From a virus (Duplodnaviria > Heunggongvirae > Uroviricota > Caudoviricetes): a stretch of 12,827 nucleotides of DNA. Positions 1-12,827 of this stretch are shown here, piece by piece (within the stretch, counting starts at the first letter, position 1; every line of letters begins with the position of its first letter). The notes beneath the pieces were generated by a model, which ran no database searches, had not been told where the DNA came from, and was given only the letters and a program-made list of their open reading frames with translations. A program made the translations under genes and the position numbers. The stretch is from IMG/VR virus record IMGVR_UViG_2671180864_000011, one strand, 5' to 3'.

Positions 1-170
1 TGAACATAAAACACTATCAATAAGTTGGAGTCATTACCAAACGGTTGAAATGTATGCCGCTACTTACGGGTCCTGTAATCCTCTGAATAAACCAGAGGGA
101 AAAGATGATTTCGACAAAATTTACCGCTTCTTGGAGGACCGCTATATCAAAAGCTTAGAGGACGCAGGGA

Positions 171-548
171 TCAAATCCCCAGTGAAGTCACCATTGTCCT
201 GAGAACTTGCAGAACGTCATGATCATAACTTCCATCCAAACCGCGACGGCGAATTGCTTCTCGTATTACCGGAAGCAGTTCGCTGGAAATCTCGGTGCAT
301 ATTTCACCTGATAATACGCTTGGCTCAAGTGAGAATATTGGTGAACTTACGGTCTTGGTCTCGACAGTTTCAGAGTCAGTGCCAACATTATAAAGCTCAA
401 CGAAAGCGGTCTTGATTTTCCGGGCCAGATCTTTTGCTGGCTCGCTTGCAATATCTTTCCCGATTTCTCGCAGCACAGAATGCAATGTATGAGCTGCTGT
501 TTTCTGTACATCAGACGGTAAATCTTTAAATTCCATCGTCAGCCTCAT
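171..548 (-). CDS. hypothetical protein (125 aa), distal gene of a leftward early operon
   Basis: Uninterrupted 125-codon ORF. Its first ATG overlaps the stop of the upstream ORF (TGATG); a second in-frame ATG 12 nt downstream is preceded by GAGG. No family motif recognisable by eye. Confidence 0.5.
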   Translation of the reverse strand: MRLTMEFKDLPSDVQKTAAHTLHSVLREIGKDIASEPAKDLARKIKTAFVELYNVGTDSETVETKTVSSPIFSLEPSVLSGEICTEISSELLPVIREAIRRRGLDGSYDHDVLQVLRTMVTSLGI

Positions 549-754
549 CAGTCAGTGTTTCTGGCTAACCAGCAACGCGCGCCAGATTCGGTTTTAAACG
601 TTTTGCTTTTGGTATACGTCATGGCGGTAAACGTTCCATCCTGGTTAGGGAACACGCCGCACACCAGAGATTCGTTGTTGCCAAGATCGATAGTATCCAT
701 GCTGACCTCATTTCCCCTTAACGCCGGGGTGGCGGAACAAAAAACCTGCTGCAT
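548..754 (-). CDS. hypothetical small protein (68 aa from the ATG at 754; 50 aa if started at the ATG at 700)
   Basis: Minus-strand ORF downstream of the operator pair at 882..922. The internal ATG (plus 698..700) has a GAGG Shine-Dalgarno 5 nt upstream; the ATG at 754 has none. Start is uncertain. Confidence 0.4.
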   Translation of the reverse strand: MQQVFCSATPALRGNEVSMDTIDLGNNESLVCGVFPNQDGTFTAMTYTKSKTFKTESGARCWLARNTD

Positions 755-881
755 AGTTAAAGATTGAACCCTGCCGTCATGTTCTTACGCCTCGGGCTGG
801 CTACTTAACCCCTGACCACTGTCTGGTAACTCGAAGTATTGCCCTGCATTCTGTGGGGCGGGGTGGGTTGACGCCTGAAAC

Positions 882-922
882 AATAGCATCATTATTTTTT
901 TGATGTAAATAGCATCGCTATT
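882..922. promoter_or_regulatory. OL-like operator pair: two 15-bp dyads at 882..896 (AATAGCATCATTATT) and 908..922 (AATAGCATCGCTATT)
   Basis: Same motif AATAG-N5-CTATT as the two dyads between the divergent repressor and cro-like genes, with the same 25-26 bp centre-to-centre spacing. Sits between the parE terminator and the leftward genes. Confidence 0.55.
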
Positions 923-937
923 GTTTTTTGTTGGGGC

Positions 938-962
938 AAGAAAAAACCACCCTAAGGTGGTT
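938..962 (-). terminator. Rho-independent terminator candidate ending the repressor-antitoxin-toxin operon
   Basis: Perfect 7-bp inverted repeat AACCACC (945..951) / GGTGGTT (956..962) with a 4-nt loop, followed on the minus strand by TTTTCTT. Lies 17 bp past the parE stop. Confidence 0.5.
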
Positions 963-978
963 CTGTCGGCGGGAATAA

Positions 979-1269
979 TTAACTGTTTTTGCCTGGATAC
1001 TGTCTTCGAGAATGCACAATATTTACTACTTCTATGCTTGATGCTGTTACTCGGTAAAGGATGATGTAGTTAGGATGAGTTACAATTTCACGAAGACCAA
1101 GAACTCGCTCGCTTGGAGGATACAGGTAAGGATGCTCTGTGAGCGGCAAAACGGATGTTTCAATTCGAATTTTCATTCTGCGTGCTGCCGCGGGATTTTC
1201 TTTAGCTATGTAGGCTACGATCTGGCGCAAATCATCACGAGCAGATGGTAGCCATAAAACGGGTAACAT
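979..1269 (-). CDS. parE: ParE/RelE-family type II toxin (ParE2-like)
   Basis: 96-aa ORF with typical ParE/RelE length and sequence character (N-terminal LPVLWLPSARDDLRQIVAYIAKENPAAA, C-terminal IVNIVHSRRQYP). Its start overlaps the stop of the upstream small ORF (shared position 1269), as in toxin-antitoxin pairs. Confidence 0.85.
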   Translation of the reverse strand: MLPVLWLPSARDDLRQIVAYIAKENPAAARRMKIRIETSVLPLTEHPYLYPPSERVLGLREIVTHPNYIILYRVTASSIEVVNIVHSRRQYPGKNS

Positions 1270-1463
1270 TATTCACCTCTGTGAGTTGCAGCAGCAATTT
1301 GGGCAATAATTTGTTCCATTTCCGCCATTACCTCATCATGCGGAATCGCCGGGCGGGGATCCGCGAGGCTTGCTGCTACTTTGGCCCGCAGCCATTCGTT
1401 GTAACTATTTTCTTGCTCAACTGTCTCAAATTCTGAAACCATTGGGGAAAGGACTGTACTCAT
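1269..1463 (-). CDS. small antitoxin partner of the ParE toxin (PaaA2-like)
   Basis: 64-codon ORF immediately upstream of and overlapping parE, with an AGGAGA Shine-Dalgarno before its ATG. Acidic, helix-prone small protein. Size and position match the antitoxin of the three-component paaR2-paaA2-parE2 loci described in E. coli O157 prophages. Confidence 0.7.
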   Translation of the reverse strand: MSTVLSPMVSEFETVEQENSYNEWLRAKVAASLADPRPAIPHDEVMAEMEQIIAQIAAATHRGE

Positions 1464-1482
1464 TTTACATATCTCCTCTGAT

Positions 1483-1983
1483 TTAGGCGCGACGGCCTTT
1501 TTGTGCAGCTAACCACCGCGCAACCGTACGATCCATTGATTCTTTTTTATCTTTCATCTCCTGAAGCATGTGTTCTTGATCTTCTTTCGGAAAAGCTCTG
1601 AACGTATGGATTAAATCTCGTTCCATCGGCTCTACGGCAAACGGTAGTTCATCCTCTGTTTGTTCTGTGTCTGCTGGTAATGCGACTATGTTATCTTGCT
1701 GTGGTTCTCGACAATACATCCTTGCAATTTGCAGCAAATCTACCATGTCTGGCCTGATTGACTCAGGGGGAACTTTCAGTAAGCCAGCAAACTTTAGAAC
1801 AGCCTCAAGGTTTAGTGGGGTTTGACCATTTAGGTAGTGACTTACCGCCCCTTGTGTTGAAAACCCCATAATTTCCGCCGCACGTTCCTGAGTCAATCCC
1901 AACTGAGATTTCTTTGCCATCCAGATTTCTTTCAGTCTTCTGGCGGCGTTGAGGTCGGTGTCTGACAATGATTTTCTTTTCAT
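1483..1983 (-). CDS. XRE-family HTH transcriptional repressor (CI-like prophage repressor / PaaR2-like); the ORF also extends to a GTG at 2013
   Basis: HTH segment LTQERAAEIMGFSTQGAVSHYLNGQ. C-terminal ~80 aa are acidic with no S24 peptidase-like region. Divergent from a cro-like gene with dyad operators between them. First gene of the operon containing the antitoxin and parE. Confidence 0.8.
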   Translation of the reverse strand: MKRKSLSDTDLNAARRLKEIWMAKKSQLGLTQERAAEIMGFSTQGAVSHYLNGQTPLNLEAVLKFAGLLKVPPESIRPDMVDLLQIARMYCREPQQDNIVALPADTEQTEDELPFAVEPMERDLIHTFRAFPKEDQEHMLQEMKDKKESMDRTVARWLAAQKGRRA

Positions 1984-2018
1984 ACATCCAATTCTAATAA
2001 GATTGCTAATCACTTTGA

Positions 2019-2058
2019 AATAGCATCACTATTTACTTTTAAAAATAACAGTGCTATT
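2019..2058. promoter_or_regulatory. OR-like operator pair: 15-bp dyads at 2019..2033 (AATAGCATCACTATT) and 2044..2058 (AATAACAGTGCTATT), overlapping divergent promoters
   Basis: Inverted half-sites AATAG/CTATT; centres 25 bp apart. A -10-like TATTAA at 2055..2060 lies 35 bp upstream of the cro-like ATG; TTGAAA at 2015..2020 is a possible -35. Confidence 0.55.
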
Positions 2059-2094
2059 AATTATGCATTGGTAACACATCACATAGGGCGGATT

Positions 2095-2358
2095 ATGAAT
2101 CTTGGAGAATATTTGCATCATTTTCATATAACCCAGAGTTCATTTGCTGAGATTGTTGGCGCATCCCAAGGGATGGTCAGCCACGTTATAACGGGGCGTG
2201 CAAAACTTACAGGAGAAAAAATATTACGTTGGTGTGAAGCAACGGGATGGGTGGTGACCCCACATGAGATTGACAGTAAAACCTACCCCAACCCAACTGA
2301 CGGCTTGCCTGCTGAGTTTCAGGCTAACACACAACCATCGGCGGGGGTTGATTCATGA
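2095..2358 (+). CDS. Cro/YdaS-like HTH regulator (ORF opens at a TTG at 2068; ATG at 2095 preferred)
   Basis: Short protein with HTH segment FHITQSSFAEIVGASQGMVSHVITGRAKLTGEKILRW. Divergent from the repressor. Its stop overlaps the next gene's start (ATGA at 2355..2358). Confidence 0.75.
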   Translation: MNLGEYLHHFHITQSSFAEIVGASQGMVSHVITGRAKLTGEKILRWCEATGWVVTPHEIDSKTYPNPTDGLPAEFQANTQPSAGVDS

Positions 2359-2780
2359 AAATCAAGCATGAACACATCCGCATGGCGATGAAAGCCTGGG
2401 CGCATCCGGACGGTGAAAAAGTTCCGGCAGCTGAAATAACCAGGGTTTATTTCGAACTGGGAATGACGTTTCCGGTTCTGCATAACGACAGCAAGCACAA
2501 CACGCTTTATCTCAACACCCAAAAGATTTTCCGTTGGCTGGATAAAGACACCCCTGACGCTGTTGAAAAAATTCAGGCGTTGTTACCTGCGATCGAAAGG
2601 GCAATGCCACCTCCGCTGGTGGCTCGAATGCGCAGCCACAGTTCAGCTTATTTTCGGGAACTGGTGGAGACGCATGAACGACTGGTGAGAGACGCTGATG
2701 ATTTTGTCGCAGTGGCAATCGCCGGTTTCAATCAGATGAACCGTGGTGGCCCGGCAGGAAATGCTGTGGCAGTACATTGA
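2355..2780 (+). CDS. YdaT-like protein (proposed CII-type regulator; historically annotated as a toxin)
   Basis: 141-aa ORF translationally coupled to the cro/YdaS-like gene, in the position and size of ydaT in Rac-type prophages. Family assignment is by gene order and recollection, not a search. Confidence 0.55.
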   Translation: MKIKHEHIRMAMKAWAHPDGEKVPAAEITRVYFELGMTFPVLHNDSKHNTLYLNTQKIFRWLDKDTPDAVEKIQALLPAIERAMPPPLVARMRSHSSAYFRELVETHERLVRDADDFVAVAIAGFNQMNRGGPAGNAVAVH

Positions 2781-2851
2781 CTGACAATAGCCATATCGAA
2801 TCGCTCCCGGCAACTCGTGAGTAAAAAGATTCGGTATCAGAAGAGGTGAGT

Positions 2852-3916
2852 ATGGCTAACGCCTGGCTCAGATTATGGCATGACATGCCAAATGACCCTA
2901 AGTGGCGAACAATTGCCAGGGTGTCAGGGCAGCCAATTGCAACAGTGATGGCAGTGTATATCCACCTCCTGGTGAGCGCGTCACGAAATGTCACGCGAGG
3001 TCACATTGATGTCACGACAGAAGATTTGGCAAGTGCGCTCGACGTGACAGAAGAGGTAATTGATTCAATTTTGCAGACGATGCAGGGGCGGGTACTTGAT
3101 GGTGATTTAATCACTGGATGGGAAAAACGCCAGGTGCTTAAAGAGGACAACGGCAATATTTCGCAAACCGCAAAATCTCCTGCAGAGCGCAAGAGGGCGC
3201 AGCGAGAGAGGGAAAGAAAGCGGGAACAAAATGGCGATTGTCACGGCGCGTCACGAAATGTCACGCACATGTCACGACGAGTCACGACAGATACAGATAA
3301 AGATACAGATAAAGAAGATCAAAACACTATGGTCCATGGCGTAAAAAACGCCACGAACCAGGCAGGGGATGTTCAGACCGTCAATCCTGGTCAGCCAGCA
3401 GGCTCGACACCGGAAGCCGATTCAGCGTATGCGCTGAAAGCCGATTCGGGCGCTGTGCAGCAGGTGATGACCGCAAGGCCGGAGCAATCACTCCAACTGC
3501 AGCAGCCTGAAGCCGATTCCGCCATTCAGCGGGAAGCCGATCGGGTAGCCCCGGAAAACACCGGGCAGCCTGTGGGACGAGTGGATTATCCGGATGTGTT
3601 CGAACAGGTCTGGCGGGAATACCCGTTGCGTGCCGGGGCAAACCCGAAGAAATCCGCATTCAGTGCCTGGAAGGCCAGATTGCGCGAGGGGGTGCCACCA
3701 GAGACCATGCTGGATGGTGTGAGGCGTTACGCGAGATACCTGGCGGCGACCGGGAAAGCGGGAACGGAATTTGTTCAGCGAGCGACGACGTTTTTTGGGC
3801 CGGACCGGAATTTTGAAAACCCCTGGTTGCTCCCGGTAAGCGGCACGAACAACCAGCGTTGTGTGAATCATATTTCTGAACCGGATACCGAAATTCCGCC
3901 GGGATTCAGGGGGTGA
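2852..3916 (+). CDS. phage replication initiator / replisome organiser (lambda O analogue, YdaU-like)
   Basis: AAGAGG Shine-Dalgarno 5 nt before the ATG at 2852 (ORF opens at a GTG at 2846). Sits directly upstream of the DnaC-like gene. Contains two clusters of GTCACG direct repeats and low-complexity charged stretches (ERKRAQRERERKRE, TDTDKDTDKED). Confidence 0.65.
   Translation: MANAWLRLWHDMPNDPKWRTIARVSGQPIATVMAVYIHLLVSASRNVTRGHIDVTTEDLASALDVTEEVIDSILQTMQGRVLDGDLITGWEKRQVLKEDNGNISQTAKSPAERKRAQRERERKREQNGDCHGASRNVTHMSRRVTTDTDKDTDKEDQNTMVHGVKNATNQAGDVQTVNPGQPAGSTPEADSAYALKADSGAVQQVMTARPEQSLQLQQPEADSAIQREADRVAPENTGQPVGRVDYPDVFEQVWREYPLRAGANPKKSAFSAWKARLREGVPPETMLDGVRRYARYLAATGKAGTEFVQRATTFFGPDRNFENPWLLPVSGTNNQRCVNHISEPDTEIPPGFRG
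2976..3019. repeat. iteron-like cluster A: GTCAC(G/A) at 2980, 2990, 3000 and 3011 (10-11 bp phasing)
   Basis: Direct hexamer repeats at helical-turn spacing inside the initiator gene. The 21-mer GCGCGTCACGAAATGTCACGC at 2976..2996 recurs exactly at 3246..3266. Confidence 0.55.
3240..3312. repeat. iteron-like cluster B: five GTCACG at 3240, 3250, 3260, 3271 and 3281, then a 12-bp tandem AGATACAGATAA x2 (3289..3312)
   Basis: Five phased hexamers followed by an A/T-richer tandem repeat; layout resembles the intragenic origin of lambdoid phages. Confidence 0.55.
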
Positions 3917-3922
3917 TGTGGC

Positions 3923-4669
3923 ATGAAAAACATTGCGGCAGCCGGGGTTCTTGAACGTATTCACAGACTTGCACCACAGGGGGCGGTTCCACCGTACCGG
4001 ACGGTGGAGGAGTGGCGGGAATGGCAACTTGCTGAAGGACGAAAACGCAGCGAGGAGATTAACCGCCAGAATCGCCAGTTGCGGGTGGAAAAAATCCTGA
4101 ATCGTTCGGGCATCCAGCCTCTGCACAGCAAATGCTCGTTTGCGAATTATCAGGTGCAGAACGACGGGCAAAAATACGCGCTGAGCCAGGCCAAATCCAT
4201 AGCTGACGAACTGATGACCGGGTGCACGAATTTTGTGTTCAGCGGTAAAACCGGCACCGGGAAAAATCACCTTGCAGCGGCGATGGGTAACCGGCTGATG
4301 GCGAAGGGGCGCAGCGTGATTATCGTCACCGAGTCTGATGTCATGAGCGTGTTGCATGACAGCTACGACAACGGCAAATCCGGTGAAAAATTTTTACAGG
4401 AGCTTTGCGGGGTTGATTTGCTGGTCCTGGATGAAATAGGCATTCAGCGGGAGACGAAAAACGAGCAGGTGGTATTGCACCAGATAATTGATCGCCGGAC
4501 AGCATCACTGTGCAGTGTCGGGATGTTAACAAACCTGAATCATGCCGCAATGAGCACGCTTCTTGGTGAGAGGATTATGGACCGCATGACCATGAACGGT
4601 TGTCGGTGGGTGACGTTTAACTGGGATAGCTGGCGTTCAAATGTCAGCTTTCCGGGAGTTGTGAAGTAA
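3923..4669 (+). CDS. DnaC-like AAA+ helicase-loader ATPase (phage P-analogue, YdaV-like)
   Basis: Walker A FSGKTGTGKNHLAAAMG and Walker B LLVLDEIG. Start lies 7 nt after the initiator stop, preceded by a GGGGGTGA Shine-Dalgarno. Confidence 0.85.
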   Translation: MKNIAAAGVLERIHRLAPQGAVPPYRTVEEWREWQLAEGRKRSEEINRQNRQLRVEKILNRSGIQPLHSKCSFANYQVQNDGQKYALSQAKSIADELMTGCTNFVFSGKTGTGKNHLAAAMGNRLMAKGRSVIIVTESDVMSVLHDSYDNGKSGEKFLQELCGVDLLVLDEIGIQRETKNEQVVLHQIIDRRTASLCSVGMLTNLNHAAMSTLLGERIMDRMTMNGCRWVTFNWDSWRSNVSFPGVVK

Positions 4670-4690
4670 TTTTTGTTGGAGGATGTTTTA

Positions 4691-5416
4691 ATGGAAACTG
4701 TATTTGACGCACTGAAAGCACTGAAAAGAGCCTCTTCACATGTGGTGGCGTCCCGCCTTGGAATCAGCCGTGAAGATGCGGTCAACGAACTGTGGAAACT
4801 GAAGCGCCGTGGTGAAGCGGATAACAAGGGTTCGATGTGGTGGCTGATTCAGGCTGGTGAAAGTGAACCAGTGTCACCGGTACCGAAAGTGACAGCGCAA
4901 ATGCTGACTGAGGCGATTGAACAACATGGCCCACAAACGGCGGATGAGCTGGCACTGATGTTCGGGATTACCTCCCGCCGGGCGAATTCATCGCTGGCCA
5001 TGGCAATCAGCAAAGGGCGTCTGATTCGCGTGAATCAGGGCGGTAAATTTCGGTACTGCATACCGGGCGCTGATTTACCGGCAGAGCCGAAAGCCGCATC
5101 CATAGCGGAAACGGATGGTAAAGTCTTTCCTCAGCCAGCAGGTGTTGCGTTACCGGTACAGGAAGCTGCAACACAGGAAGAAATTAAAACAGAAACTGTG
5201 GCGGACATTGTGCAGTCGTTGCCATCGTTCACCGAAACGCAAGCGGATGACCTGGTTTTACCATCGCTGCATATGGCAAACCGCGAACTGCGTCGGGCGA
5301 AAAGTCATGTCCAGAAGTGGGAGCGTGTCTGCGCCGCGTTGCGGGAGCTGAACAAGCACCGGGATATTGTTCGACAGATTGTCGATTCCTCCGGTCGTAT
5401 TGTGTCGGAAAAGTGA
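4691..5416 (+). CDS. hypothetical protein (241 aa) with possible N-terminal winged-helix-like region
   Basis: ATG at 4691 preceded by GGAGGA (the track ORF opens at a TTG at 4673). N-terminal segment [27 protein letters not shown]. No catalytic motif recognised. Confidence 0.6.
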
Positions 5417-5431
5417 TTGCCGGGGGCGCTT

Positions 5432-5854
5432 ATGGCAAAAGTATTTACACAGGAAGAGCGGGAAAAAATTAAGGGGCAGGTTGTTGAACTCGTACGCCAG
5501 AGTGGGCGCGAGACGTTACGACAACTGGAAGCTAAAACCGGGGCGACAAGATATTTAATAAGCGTTCTCGCCAGAGAGCTGGTTGCCAGTGGGGATGTAT
5601 ACAACTCTGGCTACGGGTTATTCCCGTCTGAACAGGCTCGTAAGGACTGGCAAAACGCCCGCAAAAAACTCTCGAGGGCAAAGCTGAAGAAACCATCTGT
5701 GGTTGATCCGGACCTTATCTGGTCATTACCAGACGGAGAAATACGCCGCTACGACAGACATCAGAACATAATCTGTCGCGAGTGCCGGAAGAGTGAAGTT
5801 ATGCAGCGTGTACCGGCTTTCTATCAGGGTGATTTTCAGGAGGCGGTACTGTGA
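5432..5854 (+). CDS. hypothetical protein (140 aa), possible winged-helix N-terminus and C-terminal CxxC
   Basis: ATG at 5432 (track ORF opens at a TTG at 5417). A diverged, 5'-truncated second copy at 8744..9133 differs mostly at synonymous sites, which argues the reading frame is real and under selection. Confidence 0.6.
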   Translation: MAKVFTQEEREKIKGQVVELVRQSGRETLRQLEAKTGATRYLISVLARELVASGDVYNSGYGLFPSEQARKDWQNARKKLSRAKLKKPSVVDPDLIWSLPDGEIRRYDRHQNIICRECRKSEVMQRVPAFYQGDFQEAVL

Positions 5855-7470
5855 GTGAAATTAGCTATCAGGCTTCAATTACCGCTGGCATTCGCATCAA
5901 AGGAGAGGAGCATGGAAATAAAACCAGAAGATGAGTTAAGCAATATTGTTTTATTTCCGGTAAAAGAGGATAACCCTCGTAATCAGGTTAATTTTCTTTA
6001 TGAGCCATCGGAAAGACCATATTGCCATCACGCTTCTGTCCGGGTTGACGAAAAAGAGCGTCAGGTCCGCTGTAAAATTTGCGGTGCAGTTGTGGAGCCA
6101 TTTGACTGGATGCTCTCTGTGGCGAAAAGAGAAACCAGACTGGCAGATGATGTAAGGCTCTTGCGCCAGGAGGAGCGGGAAAGGCGAAAAAATATAGAAA
6201 AGCTAATCCAGATTGAGCGTAATGCGAAAGCGCGGATACGCAGGGTGACAAAATATAGCCCCGAATAATCAAGGTTATTTCTGGAAGTCAAGTCGTGAGT
6301 GATGAGGACTAACAAATACGGTGAACTCGATAAAGAGATTCAGGACGAACTGGAGGCCAGGAATGATTGACAAATCACCAAGTGAGTTCAGCTACAAAGA
6401 TTTATTGTCATAACGGGTTATGAGATCGACTTGGTGCGTGATATTCTTCGGGCCAGTTTGCTATGCGCCACCATGAGATGTTATGGCCCGCATGTTTGAT
6501 ACATTAGGATTTTACATTATGAATGTGCAACATTTTGATTTTTTTACAGATAATGAGTTTTCTAATCTGGAAAGATATCAAACTTGTAAAGCCATGGCCA
6601 AAGGTTATGCGGGCAATTACAAAACCGGGCAGTCAAGGTTGATGCATGCCCGCTCATACTGCTTCAGCATCGTAGCTGCATATTGGGATACCCTTGCAAA
6701 AAAGCAAAAAAGCAGCATTAAAATGAGGGCAGTACCGCACACTGTTTACATAGAAGACATTCCATGTGATGCACGCGAGCTCGCTGAACGAACAGGTGAG
6801 CTTATTGCTCAATTTCCGGCGGAGGACGCTGGATATCTGATTGGGTCAATTTATACGGTAATGCTGCCATCCGCTTACCGTTCGGAATTGGGGGCTTACT
6901 ATACCCCCCCACCTTTGGTAGCGCGTCTCTTGGACCTGGCTGAAAAGTCTGGTGTTGATTTTTCTCATGCATCGGTTATTGATCCTGCGTGTGGTGGCGG
7001 TGCATTTTTGGCACCAGTAGCCATTCGAATGTTAAAAAAAGACAAGGGGTCTTCCCCTGAATGGATGTTGAGGAGAATCAGTCGTCGTTTAAAGGGGATA
7101 GAAATCGATCCATTTGCGGCTTGGATGAGTTTGGTATTGCTCGAATCTGTACTAATGCCACTATGTGTAAAGGTAAAACGTAGATTGCCTGAAGATACAA
7201 TTATTGTTGCTGATGCGCTTCAGCAAGATAAATTTTCTGGTTATGATCTTGTGGTAGGGAATCCGCCTTACGGACGTGTCACTCTCGATATTAAAACGAG
7301 AGAAAAATATTCTCGTTCGTTATTTGGTCATGCAAATCTATATGGATTGTTCACCGACTTAGCTGTTCGCATGGTTAAAGAGAAAACAGGAGTTATTGCA
7401 TTTCTTACGCCAACTTCTTTTCTTGGTGGGCAGTATTTCACCGCGCTGCGAACCCTTTTGACCGAAAAAA
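5465..7470. repeat. copy 1 of a ~2.0-kb direct repeat (140-aa gene, zinc-ribbon gene, leader, methyltransferase 5' half)
   Basis: Collinear with 8744..10749 at a constant offset of 3279 bp. Encoded proteins are identical from about 5710 onward; the first ~245 bp carry multiple substitutions. Confidence 0.85.
5912..6268 (+). CDS. hypothetical zinc-ribbon-like protein with basic coiled-coil tail (118 aa), copy 1
   Basis: Strong Shine-Dalgarno AAAGGAGAGGAG before the ATG at 5912 (track ORF opens at a GTG at 5855). C-H-H...C-K-I-C spacing suggests a metal-binding ribbon; C-terminus RLLRQEERERRKNIEKLIQIERNAKARIRR. An identical copy lies at 9191..9547. Confidence 0.6.
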   Translation: MEIKPEDELSNIVLFPVKEDNPRNQVNFLYEPSERPYCHHASVRVDEKERQVRCKICGAVVEPFDWMLSVAKRETRLADDVRLLRQEERERRKNIEKLIQIERNAKARIRRVTKYSPE

Positions 7471-7526
7471 ATTGGCTAATGAGGTGTACTGGCAATAGCG
7501 GACACTACCATTTGTTCTTTTTTTAA
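6483..7526 (+). pseudogene. 3'-truncated copy of the N6-adenine DNA methyltransferase gene
   Basis: First 329 codons are identical to the intact gene at 9762..11594. Homology ends at 7470, followed by 9 unrelated bp and the IS left end at 7480. The ORF then reads through unrelated sequence to a stop at 7526. Motifs X, I and IV are retained; the C-terminal domain is lost. Confidence 0.8.
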
Positions 7527-8341
7527 GCAGCCATCTGATGATATTTTTCCCTGAAGGCTGCCGGGGAGATATTCCCCAGACGAGAGTGACGACGCTGACG
7601 ATTGTAGAAAATCTCAATGTATTCCCGTATTACTGAGATGGCTTCATCCCGGTTATTAAAACGATAGTGGCTCAGGCTCTCATTTTTCAGCGTTCCCCAG
7701 AAGCTTTCCATCGGAGCGTTGTCGTAACAGTTACCTTTACGCGACATTGATGTTTTCAGACCAGACTGCTCCTGTATGACCCGGTAATCGTATGCGCAGT
7801 ACTGTGAACCTCGATCAGAGTGGTGGATTAGCCCGGCAGGTGGGCGCTGGCTCCTGAGCGCCATAAACAGGGCTTTACCTGTCAGCTCTTTTGTCATGCG
7901 CTCTCCCATGGCGTAGCCGACAATTTCGCACGTATAAACATCTTTGATGCCAGCGAGGTACAACCATCCCTCCTGTGTGGCAACATACGTCAGGTCCGCC
8001 ACCCAGACCTGATTTGGTGCTGTAGGAGCGAACGTCTGGTTCAGCAGATTTGGCGCAACTGGCAGATTGTGGTTCGAGTTCGTAGTCGCTCTGAACTTGC
8101 GTTTCTGCTTACAGCGTAGCCTTAGCTCCTTACGAAGACGTGCCAGTCGGTCACGACCAACGATGATGCCATTCTCTGCCAGCTCCGTCTGGAGCCGCCG
8201 GGTTCCATATGTTTCGCGAGTGCGGATATGTGCCACCTTAATCTCCAGTTTTAGCCGCTCATCACTTTGTTTTCTGTCTGAGGGTTCATGCTGTACCCAG
8301 TTGTAATAACCGCTCCTGGATACACCAAATACCTGACACAT
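7523..8341 (-). CDS. IS3-family transposase OrfB (DDE catalytic domain), normally made as an OrfAB fusion by -1 frameshifting
   Basis: 272-aa ORF in the -1 frame relative to orfA. Integrase-type catalytic core typical of IS3 OrfB (VWVADLTY ... HHSDRGSQY ... NAPMESFWGTLK). Confidence 0.85.
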   Translation of the reverse strand: MCQVFGVSRSGYYNWVQHEPSDRKQSDERLKLEIKVAHIRTRETYGTRRLQTELAENGIIVGRDRLARLRKELRLRCKQKRKFRATTNSNHNLPVAPNLLNQTFAPTAPNQVWVADLTYVATQEGWLYLAGIKDVYTCEIVGYAMGERMTKELTGKALFMALRSQRPPAGLIHHSDRGSQYCAYDYRVIQEQSGLKTSMSRKGNCYDNAPMESFWGTLKNESLSHYRFNNRDEAISVIREYIEIFYNRQRRHSRLGNISPAAFREKYHQMAA

Positions 8342-8376
8342 CGCTTCAATGGGAAATTGTTGTCGCCATTGTTCGA

Positions 8377-8679
8377 TTAACGCGTATTTTTCAGCGACTC
8401 CTGTGCAAAATACGCTGTTGCTTTTTTTAATATATCTCGCTCAAGGCGAGCTTCATTTAACGCCTTACGCAGTTGCAGAATTTCAGATTCCAGTTCAGCC
8501 ACCGTGCGGGAACCAGGAGTACCGAGCCCTTTTCTGGCGGCGGTAACCCATTGTCCTAAAGTGCCTTCAGGAAGAGATAATCGGGAAGCGCCTTCACTGA
8601 TCGAAAGTTGATTTTCAGGAACCGTTCTGACAGCTTCGGCTTTGAACTCTTTAGAGTAACGTTGGGTTTTTCTGCTCAT
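8377..8679 (-). CDS. IS3-family transposase OrfA (HTH DNA-binding subunit)
   Basis: 100-aa ORF with a leucine-zipper-like C-terminus (ELESEILQLRKALNEARLERDILKKATAYFAQ) ending just after the slippery run. Confidence 0.85.
   Translation of the reverse strand: MSRKTQRYSKEFKAEAVRTVPENQLSISEGASRLSLPEGTLGQWVTAARKGLGTPGSRTVAELESEILQLRKALNEARLERDILKKATAYFAQESLKNTR
8422..8428 (-). other. programmed -1 ribosomal frameshift slippery run (A AAA AAA G on the minus strand) for OrfAB
   Basis: Seven consecutive T on the plus strand inside the orfA codons for L-K-K-A, in the orfA/orfB overlap. Confidence 0.6.
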
Positions 8680-8743
8680 TATTAGCTCCTTCTGATGCCA
8701 TTCTATTTCAGGAAGGAGTGTCCGTTAAACTCAGGCTACCTCA

Positions 8744-9133
8744 AAAATTAAAGGGCAGGTTGTTGAACTTGTACGTCTGAGCGGTCGCGAGACGTTGCGG
8801 CAACTGGAAGCCAAGACAGGTGCGACAAGATATCTGATGAGTGTTCTCGCCAGAGAGCTGGTTGCCAGTGGCGATGTATACAACTCTGGTTACGGGTTAT
8901 TCCCGTCTGAACAGGCGCGTAAGGACTGGCAAAACGCCCGCAAAAAACTCTCAAGGGCAAATCTGAAGAAACCATCTGTGGTTGATCCTGACCTTATCTG
9001 GTCATTACCAGACGGAGAAATACGCCGCTACGACAGACATCAGAACATAATCTGTCGCGAGTGCCGGAAGAGTGAAGTTATGCAGCGTGTACCGGCTTTC
9101 TATCAGGGTGATTTTCAGGAGGCGGTACTGTGA
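8744..9133 (+). pseudogene. 5'-truncated, diverged second copy of the 140-aa hypothetical gene
   Basis: Homology to 5465..5854 begins immediately after the IS right end and lacks the first 11 codons. About 20 nucleotide differences but only 3 amino-acid changes (Q to L, I to M, K to N). The track ORF 8795..9133 begins at an internal Met. Confidence 0.7.
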
Positions 9134-9190
9134 GTGAAATTAGCTATCAGGCTTCAATTACCGCTGGCATTCGCATCAAAGGAGAGGAGC

Positions 9191-9547
9191 ATGGAAATAA
9201 AACCAGAAGATGAGTTAAGCAATATTGTTTTATTTCCGGTAAAAGAGGATAACCCTCGTAATCAGGTTAATTTTCTTTATGAGCCATCGGAAAGACCATA
9301 TTGCCATCACGCTTCTGTCCGGGTTGACGAAAAAGAGCGTCAGGTCCGCTGTAAAATTTGCGGTGCAGTTGTGGAGCCATTTGACTGGATGCTCTCTGTG
9401 GCGAAAAGAGAAACCAGACTGGCAGATGATGTAAGGCTCTTGCGCCAGGAGGAGCGGGAAAGGCGAAAAAATATAGAAAAGCTAATCCAGATTGAGCGTA
9501 ATGCGAAAGCGCGGATACGCAGGGTGACAAAATATAGCCCCGAATAA
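9191..9547 (+). CDS. hypothetical zinc-ribbon-like protein, copy 2 (protein identical to copy 1)
   Basis: Same Shine-Dalgarno and ATG context as copy 1; translation identical. Confidence 0.6.
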   Translation: MEIKPEDELSNIVLFPVKEDNPRNQVNFLYEPSERPYCHHASVRVDEKERQVRCKICGAVVEPFDWMLSVAKRETRLADDVRLLRQEERERRKNIEKLIQIERNAKARIRRVTKYSPE

Positions 9548-9761
9548 TCAAGGTTATTTCTGGAAGTCAAGTCGTGAGTGATGAGGACTAACAAATACGG
9601 TGAACTCGATAAAGAGATTCAGGACGAACTGGAGGCCAGGAATGATTGACAAATCACCAAGTGAGTTCAGCTACAAAGATTTATTGTCATAACGGGTTAT
9701 GAGATCGACTTGGTGCGTGATATTCTTCGGGCCAGTTTGCTATGCGCCACCATGAGATGTT

Positions 9762-11594
9762 ATGGCCCGCATGTTTGATACATTAGGATTTTACATTATG
9801 AATGTGCAACATTTTGATTTTTTTACAGATAATGAGTTTTCTAATCTGGAAAGATATCAAACTTGTAAAGCCATGGCCAAAGGTTATGCGGGCAATTACA
9901 AAACCGGGCAGTCAAGGTTGATGCATGCCCGCTCATACTGCTTCAGCATCGTAGCTGCATATTGGGATACCCTTGCAAAAAAGCAAAAAAGCAGCATTAA
10001 AATGAGGGCAGTACCGCACACTGTTTACATAGAAGACATTCCATGTGATGCACGCGAGCTCGCTGAACGAACAGGTGAGCTTATTGCTCAATTTCCGGCG
10101 GAGGACGCTGGATATCTGATTGGGTCAATTTATACGGTAATGCTGCCATCCGCTTACCGTTCGGAATTGGGGGCTTACTATACCCCCCCACCTTTGGTAG
10201 CGCGTCTCTTGGACCTGGCTGAAAAGTCTGGTGTTGATTTTTCTCATGCATCGGTTATTGATCCTGCGTGTGGTGGCGGTGCATTTTTGGCACCAGTAGC
10301 CATTCGAATGTTAAAAAAAGACAAGGGGTCTTCCCCTGAATGGATGTTGAGGAGAATCAGTCGTCGTTTAAAGGGGATAGAAATCGATCCATTTGCGGCT
10401 TGGATGAGTTTGGTATTGCTCGAATCTGTACTAATGCCACTATGTGTAAAGGTAAAACGTAGATTGCCTGAAGATACAATTATTGTTGCTGATGCGCTTC
10501 AGCAAGATAAATTTTCTGGTTATGATCTTGTGGTAGGGAATCCGCCTTACGGACGTGTCACTCTCGATATTAAAACGAGAGAAAAATATTCTCGTTCGTT
10601 ATTTGGTCATGCAAATCTATATGGATTGTTCACCGACTTAGCTGTTCGCATGGTTAAAGAGAAAACAGGAGTTATTGCATTTCTTACGCCAACTTCTTTT
10701 CTTGGTGGGCAGTATTTCACCGCGCTGCGAACCCTTTTGACCGAAAAAACTACTCCGTATGCCCTTGATTTCGTCACTGACAGGGATGGGGTCTTTGACG
10801 ATGTTCTCCAGGAAACAATGTTGACAGCATTCAAGGCGGGAGAACATAAAGTTCGGGCCCAGGTATCCTCACTTGTCCCTAAGGGGTTGAACAAAGCAAA
10901 AATTGAGAAAATAGGTAATGTTGATATAGAAAAAGGTGGAGCAACGTGGCTTTTGCCACGCGTTAAAGATGATGCCTGTTTTCTTAATGTATTAAAACAG
11001 ATGTCTACGCGTTTAGCTGATCTGGGATACTCAGTCTCTACAGGTCAGTTAGTCTGGAATCGATTTAAGTCGCAGTTGCGTACGACGAAAGGAAAAAATA
11101 GCTACCCATTAGTCTGGGCGGAATCAATAACTTCAGCTGGTTTTCGTTTTAGTGCAGACAGAAAAAATCATGTTCCCTATATCGATATAACCCCACAACA
11201 GGGTTTCCTTGTGACAAAATCTGAATGTGTGCTTGTTCAGCGGACAACATCGAAGGAACAGGACAGAAGGATTTTAGCGGCAATTTTACCTCAGGGATTT
11301 ATAGATGAAACTGGTGGCGTAGTAGTTGAAAACCATATTAATATTGTATATTCAAACGGATTGTTCTCTGCGGTTCGCCCTGATGTTATTGATATGCTAC
11401 TTAATTCGCATGTTGTCGATCGGGCGTTCAGGTGTATAAGCGGAAGTGTTGCTGTTTCGGCCTATGAATTGAATTCAATCCCGTTGCCTTCTCTGGAGCA
11501 GGTGATGGAGATTCAATCGTTAATTGATGCTGGCGTCCACAGACGGATTATTGAGAGAACTATCGCTGGTTTCTATGGAGTGATGATTGCATGA
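9762..11594 (+). CDS. gamma-class N6-adenine DNA methyltransferase (type II RM-type; possible true start at ATG 9798)
   Basis: Motif order X (GAYYTPPPLVARLL), I (DPACGGGAFL), IV (VVGNPPYGR), followed by a ~340-aa C-terminal region consistent with a target-recognition domain. AGGA lies 9 nt before the ATG at 9798; the ATG at 9762 has no Shine-Dalgarno. Confidence 0.85.
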   Translation: MARMFDTLGFYIMNVQHFDFFTDNEFSNLERYQTCKAMAKGYAGNYKTGQSRLMHARSYCFSIVAAYWDTLAKKQKSSIKMRAVPHTVYIEDIPCDARELAERTGELIAQFPAEDAGYLIGSIYTVMLPSAYRSELGAYYTPPPLVARLLDLAEKSGVDFSHASVIDPACGGGAFLAPVAIRMLKKDKGSSPEWMLRRISRRLKGIEIDPFAAWMSLVLLESVLMPLCVKVKRRLPEDTIIVADALQQDKFSGYDLVVGNPPYGRVTLDIKTREKYSRSLFGHANLYGLFTDLAVRMVKEKTGVIAFLTPTSFLGGQYFTALRTLLTEKTTPYALDFVTDRDGVFDDVLQETMLTAFKAGEHKVRAQVSSLVPKGLNKAKIEKIGNVDIEKGGATWLLPRVKDDACFLNVLKQMSTRLADLGYSVSTGQLVWNRFKSQLRTTKGKNSYPLVWAESITSAGFRFSADRKNHVPYIDITPQQGFLVTKSECVLVQRTTSKEQDRRILAAILPQGFIDETGGVVVENHINIVYSNGLFSAVRPDVIDMLLNSHVVDRAFRCISGSVAVSAYELNSIPLPSLEQVMEIQSLIDAGVHRRIIERTIAGFYGVMIA

Positions 11595-12673
11595 ATCTGC
11601 CTGTTGTTCCCCCATTGAATGTTATCCGGGAAAGATTACAATTAATTTTCCCTGAAGGGACTGAGAATCGTGGATATTTAATTCGGGAAATAGCTGCAAA
11701 AACAATTTTTGTCATGTTTTATGCTGGTGCGGTTGAGGGGCTGGGGCGATGGATAAGGCCCAGCCAGGTTGTAAGTATGGGAGATTCGCAGGCTGCTCTT
11801 ACTGATGATGCGTCCAGAGAAAGCTGGGTAAAGATGACTTTCTCTAAACAAAAGATAAGGCCTGCTGATGCATGGTATGCGGAAAATACGCGTGAGCCAA
11901 TACGTGATGAAACTATAAAAAATGGCCTAATACCTTGCAATGCAATTGTTGAGCGTAAAGGTATACCCACCACATCCTCTCGTCCTCGTTACAGTTTGAA
12001 TCGCTCTTTTGCAGCACTCTTTGATGCCGGGCTTGAAGGAGATTCGCTGCTGAGTGCAATAAGTTCCTGGCAAGAAAATCATTTGAACAAAGCCGCTCTT
12101 GCTAGGTTGCGTTTATTGAAATCAGGGGCAGTGATTGCTGCTGATGCCGTAGTCGTCACTTTCCCAAATGGAGAGAAGAGAACTTTAGCTCCGGGCCCGT
12201 CAAGTACAATAGCTAAGGCCGTCATCGAAGTTTTTGCTCCTAATTTTCTTAAGAATCCAACTGTGCTCTGGTTGTCTGAATCCGGGAATAAAGTTGTTGC
12301 TCAGGATGATGTATTGGCAAAAGCATTGGGGCTGAATATTGATGCCTCAAAAGCACTTCCAGATATTATTTTGATTGATTTGGGAGAGGACCGAACGGGT
12401 TCGGACATGCTTGTAGTTTTCACTGAAGTAGTTGCGACAGATGGGCCTATAAACAGGGAACGAAAAGTTACTCTCACTCATTTGGCTATTGACGCTGGGT
12501 TCAGCGAGAAAAATCTTGCATTCCTTACGGCATTTATGGACAGAAGTGCTCTGCCTTTTAAAAAGGCAATACCAGAATTGGCGTGGGGATCTTATGCATG
12601 GTTTGCTTCTGAACCGGAGCACTTAATTGATCTTCGGGATGGTTATCCGGTAAAGATCAGCCAGAGAAAATGA
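11591..12673 (+). CDS. putative restriction endonuclease partner of the methyltransferase (possibly BsuBI/PstI-like); function not proven
   Basis: 360-aa ORF whose ATG overlaps the methyltransferase stop (ATGA at 11591..11594). Same AT-rich composition as the methyltransferase. No unambiguous PD-(D/E)xK motif identified by eye, so the call rests on gene context. Confidence 0.5.
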   Translation: MNLPVVPPLNVIRERLQLIFPEGTENRGYLIREIAAKTIFVMFYAGAVEGLGRWIRPSQVVSMGDSQAALTDDASRESWVKMTFSKQKIRPADAWYAENTREPIRDETIKNGLIPCNAIVERKGIPTTSSRPRYSLNRSFAALFDAGLEGDSLLSAISSWQENHLNKAALARLRLLKSGAVIAADAVVVTFPNGEKRTLAPGPSSTIAKAVIEVFAPNFLKNPTVLWLSESGNKVVAQDDVLAKALGLNIDASKALPDIILIDLGEDRTGSDMLVVFTEVVATDGPINRERKVTLTHLAIDAGFSEKNLAFLTAFMDRSALPFKKAIPELAWGSYAWFASEPEHLIDLRDGYPVKISQRK

Positions 12674-12827
12674 CCAAAGTTTGATATCCGCCACGCCCTG
12701 AAGGATGGGGGTTTTACGGTGCACTGGATAAAAAATCGGTTTCATAGATTTGCCCACCGTGGTATACGCCTGCGATAAAAACTTTATTGTCATCAACGGC
12801 AAAAGCAATAATTGTTCTGTGGCGGGG

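Follow-up and report, generated by a model that had tools for sequence, protein, structure and literature searches.

A predicted type IIP restriction-modification pair of the BsuBI/PstI family in a lambdoid prophage region

Is the 360-aa protein encoded directly behind a prophage DNA methyltransferase the endonuclease of a restriction-modification (RM) system and, if so, which site might the two proteins recognise? We addressed this for a pair of genes, here called M and R, in a window of 12,827 nucleotides (the whole stretch of DNA analysed) from the IMG/VR virus record IMGVR_UViG_2671180864_000011. A first-pass annotation had described the two genes as a type II RM-like pair. Its coordinates for both ORFs (Table 1) are correct, and its description agrees with matches to Pfam and PADLOC models and with the solved relatives of the two proteins, SdaI and M.TaqI.

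M carries motif X (GAYYTPPPLV, aa 137-146), motif I (VIDPACGGGAF, aa 165-175) and motif IV (GNPPYG, aa 259-264, with NPPY at 260-263). This is the gamma-class order claimed for it earlier, and Pfam matches to Eco57I (PF07669; 51.4 bits, cut-off 25.3) and N6_Mtase (PF02384; 37.6 bits, cut-off 20.4) bear it out. The PADLOC model MTase_II (PDLC03338) matches M over its full length (E 1.8e-300), M.TaqI is its top PDB match and the nearest solved methyltransferase, and C-terminal residues 340-584 align with the recognition half of M.EcoGIII. An identical Shigella sonnei protein is named 'N-6 DNA methylase' in NCBI records. These features show M to be a predicted SAM-dependent N6-adenine DNA methyltransferase of the gamma class, whose catalytic motif is NPPY and whose C-terminal half would serve target recognition. 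Three other assignments were considered and rejected. The Alw26I/Eco31I/Esp3I family model (TIGR02987) gives M 78.7 bits against an NCBIfam cut-off of 353.5, the score of a distant relative only; BREX PglX models give it only 30-37 bits against cut-offs of 400-900; and a type IIG or otherwise fused RM enzyme is ruled out by the two separate ORFs.

The longest ORF probably overstates the length of M. Most homologues have 598 aa, their alignment beginning at M residue 13 and covering 98% of the query; several gene callers choose the ATG at 9798, with 598-aa calls in loci L089, L091 and L093; and an AGGA lies at 9784, ahead of that ATG. The true start is therefore probably 9798 rather than 9762, which would give a protein of 598 aa. 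We refer to the homologous pairs below as the 598/360-aa lineage.

Table 1. Positions of the M-R pair and neighbouring features in the window
Feature	Position	Strand	Details and evidence
Left copy of direct repeat (~2,006 nt)	5464..7470	+	100% identical to S. sonnei chromosomes L086 and L088
Truncated M copy, pseudogene	6483..7526	+	First 329 codons identical to intact M
Probable IS600 (IS3 family), 1,264 bp	7480..8743	-	Pfam domains, PGAP-named matches, aligned ends
IS600 orfB	7523-8341	-	Pfam HTH_Tnp_1, rve and HTH_21 across the IS600 ORFs
IS600 orfA	8377-8679	-	Pfam HTH_Tnp_1, rve and HTH_21 across the IS600 ORFs
Right copy of direct repeat	8744..10749	+	98.9% identical to S. sonnei reference
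M gene, predicted gamma-class N6-adenine DNA methyltransferase	9762..11594	+	610 aa as longest ORF; Pfam, PADLOC, motifs
AGGA ribosome-binding site and alternative M start (ATG 9798)	9784..9800	+	Sequence, 598-aa gene calls, homologues
Coupling junction: GGAG ribosome-binding site in 3' end of M, then ATGA overlap	11577..11594	+	
R gene, predicted BsuBI/PstI-family type II restriction endonuclease	11591..12673	+	360 aa; Pfam, PADLOC, SdaI

Two identities had been offered for the 360-aa partner, a BsuBI/PstI-type endonuclease and an unrelated effector; the first is supported by family matches, and the same matches remove the second. Pfam profile searches of both proteins, a check proposed in the first-pass annotation, placed all four domains above cut-off. 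Those of R are the C-terminal domain PF06616 (152.2 bits, cut-off 27; aa 188-349, profile positions 2-152 of 154) and the N-terminal helix-turn-helix recognition domain PF17728 (106.6 bits, cut-off 27; aa 10-172), with E-values of 9e-45 and 1e-30. R thus falls in endonuclease families and not in the non-nuclease family that had been named as the outcome counting against an RM pair. The PADLOC model REase_II (PDLC03589) matches R over its full length (E 2.8e-128), and NCBI records give an identical S. sonnei protein the name 'BsuBI/PstI family type II restriction endonuclease'. SdaI (PDB 2ixs) is the sole significant PDB relative of R, both by sequence (phmmer E 1.8e-16, residues 96-349) and by fold (Foldseek E 2.5e-15, probability 1.0, using an AlphaFold2 model with a mean pLDDT of 76). 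PF06616 has been assigned to the PD-(D/E)XK class (PMC3424549). When R is aligned with homologues, the EcoGIII endonuclease among them, its P257, D258 and E279 are invariant, and it retains all 43 residues invariant between the 598/360-aa lineage and that enzyme. A helix motif, YA-x-N-(S/T)-R-E-x-x-R, is common to R, EcoGIII and SdaI. The evidence shows R to be a predicted SdaI-type endonuclease of two domains, with N-terminal helix-turn-helix recognition and a C-terminal PD-(D/E)XK nuclease. That R is instead a non-nuclease effector sharing the operon of M has a negligible probability, given two Pfam domains far over cut-off, the full-length REase_II match, homology to SdaI in sequence and fold and the NCBI naming, and we found nothing in its favour except that no nuclease motif had earlier been seen by eye. 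The PD-(D/E)XK lysine is not at the SdaI position, R reading E-V-V-A where SdaI reads E-A-V-K. The active EcoGIII endonuclease has E-S-V-T there, likewise without a lysine, so the idea of a dead nuclease was dropped.

M ends in ATT GCA TGA and R starts at the ATG of gcATGAatc; the overlap of stop and start, already recognised in the earlier reading, comprises the 4 nt ATGA at 11591-11594, with GGAG at 11577-11580, 10 nt 5' of the R start codon. In each of 80 species-representative loci, drawn from several phyla, the gene immediately before R on the same strand encodes a homologue of M. The overlap is exactly 4 nt in half of these loci (40/80), and the spacing lies between -4 and +4 nt in 66. 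This arrangement, with M before R and their stop and start overlapping by 4 nt, is conserved in the 598/360-aa lineage. The DNA immediately ahead of M showed no sigma-70 consensus promoter. We considered the upstream ORF, a 137-aa zinc-ribbon protein, as a controller or third component and rejected it because none of the 80 non-Escherichia loci contains it, because its phage family (phrog_1621) has no assigned function, and because it occurs without the RM pair in E. coli, where the gene is found in 1,680 of 5,426 genomes.

The early region of a lambdoid phage is present in the window, and two E. coli genomes have the same pair inside prophages that are integrated beside potC and contain genes for lysis, terminase, portal and capsid; the locus is prophage-borne, as had been proposed. 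The pair is also more AT-rich than the replication genes (2846-5416), with a GC content of 43.6% against 53.6%, 10 points lower. Homology ends ~5-20 nt past the stop codon of the phrog_1621 gene, and the same slot in other prophages holds hokD and small ORFs. Composition, homology break and variable slot content all support the separate acquisition suggested by the first-pass annotation, and the pair is evidently cargo in a variable slot of a lambdoid prophage, with the replication region on one side and the nin region on the other. Its distribution is uneven: it occurs in only 2 of 5,426 complete E. coli genomes and is very probably near-universal in S. sonnei, and the 598/360-aa lineage is widespread in Proteobacteria and beyond, with an R of 55% identity on a Xanthomonas phaseoli plasmid (L035). 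A DNA search of a phage collection with the whole pair returned no match, and a protein-level search of the collection gave only distant matches, to EcoGIII-type genes. The S. sonnei prophage is a cryptic remnant, ended by IS1 ~200 nt after R, and more than 1,000 S. sonnei contigs carry an intact, identical R ORF. In a published survey, 994 S. sonnei genomes yielded 982 type II systems (PMC13293514). In nearly every S. sonnei genome, this pair is very probably the only type II system.

We consider it highly likely, on family membership and gene arrangement, that the pair is a conventional two-gene type IIP RM system of the BsuBI/PstI family carried as lambdoid prophage cargo. In such a system M would modify a short palindromic site by adenine methylation of both strands, protecting host and prophage DNA, and a dimer of R would cut phage or plasmid DNA entering the cell with that site unmethylated. 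Through translational coupling, synthesis of R would depend on prior translation of M. The lysogen would gain a defence against superinfection, and the prophage may gain through post-segregational killing when the system is lost. It is improbable that R, intact by sequence, is inactive or unexpressed and that the pair acts as a solitary epigenetic methyltransferase in a decaying prophage. The IS1-cut remnant in S. sonnei, the additional IS600 damage in the window, the consensus promoter not found upstream of M and the non-conserved position of the usual catalytic lysine would fit such decay. However, a full-length, identical R ORF persists across the S. sonnei contigs, all 43 invariant residues are kept, the biochemically active EcoGIII endonuclease equally lacks that lysine, and the pairing of M with R is conserved in every one of the 80 loci.

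Upstream of the intact M lies a 3,279-bp insertion consisting of 9 nt, a probable IS600 element and a near-copy of the 2 kb that precede the insertion. This IS600-linked partial duplication is the only unusual thing near the pair; an insertion with a duplicated 5' part of M does not figure in the earlier reading. The left repeat contains the 3' part of a DUF977 gene, the phrog_1621 gene, an intergenic stretch and the 5' 988 nt of M, so that these 988 nt and ~1 kb upstream of them are present twice in the window. The right repeat, which differs from the S. sonnei reference only in its DUF977 part, supplies the intact M with its promoter-proximal part and codons 1-329. The two copies are offset by 3,279 nt and show 22 mismatches, all within 5473-5710, followed by 1,760 identical nt. 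The truncated M copy runs into 9 foreign nt and then IS600, with the tail NWLMRCTGNSGHYHLFFF before its stop; it has motifs X, I and IV and is without the entire target-recognition half. Exact-protein look-ups found no record of its product elsewhere.

An IS600 would be expected to have a length of ~1.26 kb, TG...CA ends, orfA and orfB with an rve integrase core, and a 3-4 bp target duplication. The element here is 1,264 bp long, and its orfA and orfB carry the expected Pfam domains. Matching E. coli copies bear the PGAP name 'IS3-like element IS600 family transposase', and the terminal parts match those of PGAP-annotated IS600 copies. The flanks here are TAA and AAA, with no target-site duplication, compared with ATA, CAC and CAAC at three E. 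coli copies. Neither exact-protein look-ups nor IMG/VR junction scans found a donor for the IS600/DUF977 junction. It is possible, though less likely than not, that an assembly artefact created the duplicate and the IS600 junction, the real genome having a single uninterrupted copy like the S. sonnei references. Deleting 7471-10749 yields a locus 100% identical to L086 and L088, and the same protein look-ups and IMG/VR scans showed neither the junction nor the truncated products elsewhere; the lack of a target-site duplication and the 9 unexplained nt at the left junction point the same way. The 22 substitutions between the copies, however, cluster in 250 nt of the DUF977 gene and so look like a real second allele rather than the product of collapsed or duplicated reads. 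Shigella, moreover, commonly undergoes IS-mediated rearrangements.

By likeness to PstI, BsuBI, EcoGIII and SdaI, the recognition site is most likely CTGCAG or another palindrome with a TGCA core; the chances that it is CTGCAG itself appear evenly balanced. Close similarity to the characterised CTGCAG pair was not found, as R and M are 26% (E 4e-22) and 25% (E 7e-27) identical to their EcoGIII counterparts. Specificity is not transferable from the CTGCAG enzymes because of this identity of ~26%, the unaligned N-terminus of R and the larger size of the proteins. We also looked for avoidance of palindromic hexamers in 1.13 Mb flanking the 80 related loci; no NTGCAN hexamer was an outlier, and the analysis was uninformative. 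CTGCAG itself had an observed/expected ratio of 0.88, rank 45 of 64. The literature searched for a methylome or a characterised member of the 598/360-aa lineage returned only EcoGIII/PstI-type systems, with no methylation or cleavage data for the lineage. Two candidates were discarded: Psy9853I has the 2.4-kb size of the short type, and ATGCAT methylation, described in methylome papers on STEC and ST131, is attributed there to other, unrelated enzymes (M.EcoGVI, for example).

A possible reading, which we hold to be less than probable, is that the system is active at a site other than CTGCAG and that the 598/360-aa lineage is a distinct specificity group of the BsuBI/PstI family. The low identity to the EcoGIII pair speaks for it, as do 94 N-terminal residues in the recognition domain of R without an EcoGIII counterpart and ~120 extra N-terminal residues in M; SdaI (CCTGCAGG) illustrates that the family is able to change specificity. 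On the other hand, the recognition-helix motif is conserved with the enzymes for CTGCAG and CCTGCAGG, and three loci pair a lineage-type R with a more EcoGIII-like M (31-36% identity), which fits a shared site. PstI isoschizomers are also common in genera that carry the lineage, including XphI of Xanthomonas phaseoli. A joint version, in which a separate non-CTGCAG group sets the entry barrier of S. sonnei and the truncated M could perturb the balance of M and R, is unlikely. If it were true, the species' single, near-universal type II system would set its barrier to phages and plasmids, and the IS600-truncated M could be an expressed catalytic-domain fragment that shifts that balance.

Taken as a conventional type IIP system, the pair is ordinary and already known; both proteins are correctly family-named in NCBI records, and the defence-system catalogue PADLOC already has dedicated models for the lineage. 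A prophage-borne PstI-family system, EcoGIII, has already been studied functionally, and the pair carries little weight as a discovery. Since nearly all S. sonnei very probably have this pair as their only type II system, knowledge of the recognition site would be of modest value for the design of transformable DNA and phage-therapy candidates. The IS600-linked duplication, if real, illustrates on a small scale how IS elements remodel prophages in Shigella.

Among known systems, the closest comparison is EcoGIII of the Stx2 prophages of E. coli O104:H4 C227-11 and many STEC, which is likewise prophage-borne in Escherichia/Shigella. There, too, the gene for a BsuBI/PstI-family endonuclease overlaps by 4 nt the end of a gamma-class m6A methyltransferase gene that comes before it on the same strand. 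Our comparator was the EcoGIII-type pair in locus L004 (M 858-2327, R 2324-3277), whose endonuclease is 99% identical to the C227-11 protein. This endonuclease shares with R both Pfam domains, the PD...E residues and the YA-x-N-T-R-E helix, whereas R residues 1-94 have no aligned counterpart in it and M exceeds M.EcoGIII by ~120 N-terminal residues. The EcoGIII proteins are smaller (489/317 aa against 598/360 aa), their genes adjoin cI in the immunity region rather than lying between replication and nin genes, and the two pairs have no similarity at the DNA level. EcoGIII methylates and cleaves CTGCAG, restricts lambda-like phages and changes the expression of ~1,900 genes (PMC6602927, PMC3893438). 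A homologue search seeded with the EcoGIII endonuclease and aimed at PstI/BsuBI returned only near-identical E. coli copies. The founders of PF06616 and PF17728, PstI of Providencia stuartii and BsuBI of Bacillus subtilis, share the families of R and the same methyltransferase class. The PstI genes are divergently transcribed and encode enzymes of ~320 and ~500 aa, whereas the genes here are co-directional and coupled and the proteins larger. SdaI, an 8-bp cutter, has the same plan as R, a winged-helix recognition domain and a PD-(D/E)XK domain, with 21% identity; a global TM-score of only ~0.4 indicates another arrangement of the domains in the model of R. Lastly, BsuBI/PstI-family enzymes also occur as fused M-R proteins, such as YenI of Yersinia enterocolitica. 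M and R match the two halves of such fusions in PADLOC PDLC03359 (840 positions) and phrog_1639 (838 positions), but here they are two separate polypeptides.

R, the 360-aa partner of the adenine methyltransferase M, carries the two Pfam domains by which the BsuBI/PstI endonuclease family is defined, namely the HTH domain BsuBI_PstI_RE_N (residues 10-172, 106.6 bits) and the nuclease domain BsuBI_PstI_RE (residues 188-349, 152.2 bits), each against a cut-off of 27 bits. Its sole relative among solved structures is the endonuclease SdaI (PDB 2ixs; phmmer, E 1.8e-16), which is also the sole significant fold match (Foldseek, E 2.5e-15, probability 1.0) of an AlphaFold2 model of R with a mean pLDDT of 76. 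These domains and the SdaI match bear out the type II restriction-modification (RM) pair that was the preferred reading of the first-pass annotation. M matches Eco57I (PF07669, 51.4 bits) and N6_Mtase (PF02384, 37.6 bits), both above threshold, and its closest solved relative is M.TaqI. PF06616 has been placed in the PD-(D/E)XK superfamily (PMC3424549). P257-D258 and E279 of R do not vary when 17 members of the lineage are aligned with the endonuclease of EcoGIII, the CTGCAG-specific RM pair of Stx2 prophages; a helix motif, W-Y-A-x-N-(S/T)-R-E-x-x-R, is likewise invariant and is also found in SdaI. The lysine after the glutamate in SdaI (E-A-V-K) is replaced by alanine in R (E-V-V-A). Inactivation of R through this loss was rejected, since the EcoGIII endonuclease, which likewise lacks the lysine (E-S-V-T), is biochemically active.

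The gene-level description given at first pass also held: there are indeed two long co-directional ORFs (table), the methyltransferase motifs X, I and IV all lie in M in gamma-class order, and the two genes overlap by 4 nt at ATGA, M ending in ATT GCA TGA and the ATG of R lying within gcATGAatc. GGAG stands 10 nt upstream of that ATG. The M homologues are nearly all 598 aa long and align from residue 13 of the 610-aa ORF; some gene callers choose the ATG at 9798, with AGGA at 9784, and this is probably the true start.

Coordinates of the features in the window
Feature	Position	Strand	Details
ParE toxin and PaaA2 antitoxin	979-1463	-	96 aa and 64 aa; immunity region
cI-like repressor	1483-2013		adjoins ParE/PaaA2 pair
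phrog_1621 zinc-ribbon-like ORF, two copies	5855-6268 and 9134-9547		137 aa (PGAP: 118 aa)
Truncated left-copy M pseudogene	6483-7526	+	347-aa product lacking the target-recognition half
Foreign spacer ATTGGCTAA	7471-7479		9 nt between left copy and IS600
IS600	7480-8743	-	1,264 bp
M ORF	9762-11594	+	610 aa as longest ORF
Motif X	M aa 137-146		GAYYTPPPLV
Motif I	M aa 165-175		VIDPACGGGAF
Motif IV	M aa 259-264		GNPPYG
R ORF	11591-12673	+	360 aa; co-directional with M
RelE/ParE-family toxin gene, 3' end	12714-12827	-	runs off window

We compared the arrangement across 80 species-representative loci, each encoding a relative of R at 51-68% identity, from Proteobacteria, Acidobacteria, Chloroflexi, Firmicutes, Bacteroidetes and Planctomycetes. 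An M homologue lies directly upstream on the same strand in all 80; half (40/80) share the 4-nt overlap of M stop and R start, and 66 have a gap of -4 to +4 nt. Coupling is therefore tight in most loci, a family trait and not a peculiarity of the window. At three loci (L026, L028 and L052) an endonuclease of the window lineage (53-60% identical to R) has as its partner a methyltransferase from another lineage, which shares 31-36% identity with M.EcoGIII and 25-27% with M; methyltransferase swapping thus occurs within the family. Another locus (L035), on plasmid pXPP88 of Xanthomonas phaseoli pv. phaseoli ATCC 49119, encodes an endonuclease 55% identical to R, together with a methyltransferase. 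XphI, a PstI isoschizomer, is an enzyme of this same species; if XphI is the product of the plasmid's endonuclease gene, the R lineage would be CTGCAG-specific.

Both proteins are already catalogued. M and R are letter-for-letter identical in Shigella sonnei (>1,000 contigs), where their NCBI entries read 'N-6 DNA methylase' for M and 'BsuBI/PstI family type II restriction endonuclease' for R, and the index of an assembly collection lists the identical R protein in 4,192 blocks. PADLOC has full-length models for just this lineage (MTase_II PDLC03338, E 1.8e-300; REase_II PDLC03589, E 2.8e-128). For each protein >3,700 homologues were recovered, with identities of 60-89% for the 120 best on the list, and their sources include Kluyvera, Citrobacter, Klebsiella, Serratia, Salmonella, Burkholderia and Pseudomonas; homologues of M and of R often come from the same species on equal-sized contigs, and probably lie on the same ones. 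Few complete E. coli genomes carry the pair (2 of 5,426); these two copies are 99.3-99.9% identical and have PGAP names similar to those at NCBI. The pair has no DNA-level match in 50,697 phage records. A survey of S. sonnei found 982 type II systems in 994 genomes and a species uniform in RM content (PMC13293514); the pair is the obvious candidate for the system counted there.

The genes of the window make up a lambdoid prophage's early region and run in the order ParE/PaaA2, cI-like repressor, cro, YdaT-family gene, O-like replisome organiser, DnaC/IstB-like loader, DUF1627, DUF977, phrog_1621 ORF, M and R. That the pair is prophage-borne, as first proposed, is confirmed by these genes and by the same pair in E. 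coli FDAARGOS_943 and VL7S7, whose prophages, integrated beside potC, also encode lysis, terminase, portal and capsid genes and continue past the pair with ParDE, DUF968, RusA and Q. Only a remnant of the prophage is left in S. sonnei chromosomes: IS1 cuts it off ~200 nt after R, and chromosomal genes lie beyond. The RelE/ParE-family toxin gene at the window's end is part of the ParDE pair found behind the RM pair in the E. coli prophages, and ParE/PaaA2 is a second item of this prophage's addiction or defence cargo. Inside the replisome-organiser gene, two exact 21-nt copies of GCGCGTCACGAAATGTCACGC stand in direct orientation at 2976-2996 and 3246-3266, 270 nt apart; no further copies with up to 3 mismatches were found, none being expected by chance. 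The repeat may represent an iteron-like element of an origin.

The phrog_1621 ORF, immediately upstream of the pair, is prophage backbone. Its candidacy as an RM component was rejected, since it occurs in E. coli without the pair (1,680 of 5,426 genomes carry it) and was not found beside RM homologues in other genera. Similarity ends just past its stop, at 9551-9565, except in the two RM-bearing E. coli genomes, and related prophages fill the slot with small ORFs and hokD. M and R are more AT-rich than the replication genes, as noted at first pass (43.6% GC versus 53.6% at 2846-5416). This 10-point drop, the homology break and the variable slot therefore support separate acquisition of the pair as cargo. 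The pair is ordinary: its family is well known, so is the kind of location, and its annotation is correct; the one oddity beside it is an IS600-linked partial duplication.

The ORF table repeats itself at a 3,279-nt offset, 5464-7470 matching 8744-10749 with 22 mismatches, all within 5473-5710 (the DUF977 gene), the next 1,760 nt being identical. The left-copy M is identical to the intact gene over 329 codons and then reads into ATTGGCTAA and IS600. Positions 1-7470 and 10750-12827 both match S. sonnei chromosomes at 100% identity and are contiguous there; the window is therefore the S. sonnei locus with 3,279 bp inserted, made up of the 9 nt, IS600 and a near-copy (2,006 nt) of the DNA that precedes them. 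The clustering of the substitutions points to a second prophage, with a different DUF977 allele, as recombination partner. An assembly artefact is a less likely alternative, although neither insert junction and none of the truncated products occurs elsewhere in the collections queried; IS600 also lacks a target-site duplication at its ends at 7480 and 8743 (TAA versus AAA), where three E. coli copies show ATA, CAC and CAAC. The 9 nt of ATTGGCTAA are neither M nor IS sequence. TAT(T/A)GGC also lies a few nt outside the same IS600 end in three unrelated E. coli copies, a recurrence that suggests target preference or carried flank.

The domains, the catalytic motifs and the structure of the operon are established; the mechanism we infer from family knowledge. 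M would methylate an adenine in each strand of a palindromic site, and an R dimer would cleave sites left unmethylated on incoming DNA. Coupling would make R expression dependent on translation of M; no sigma-70 consensus promoter was found directly upstream of M. The prophage might gain superinfection exclusion and stabilisation. By analogy with EcoGIII, CTGCAG is the most likely site, at about an even chance and no higher because identity to that pair is only 26% (R) and 25% (M) and residues 1-94 of R have no counterpart in its endonuclease; a TGCA-core palindrome is likely. EcoGIII is the closest studied precedent, with the same gene order and overlap; both its methylation and its cleavage target CTGCAG, and the system restricts lambda-like phages as well as affecting ~1,900 transcripts (PMC6602927, PMC3893438).
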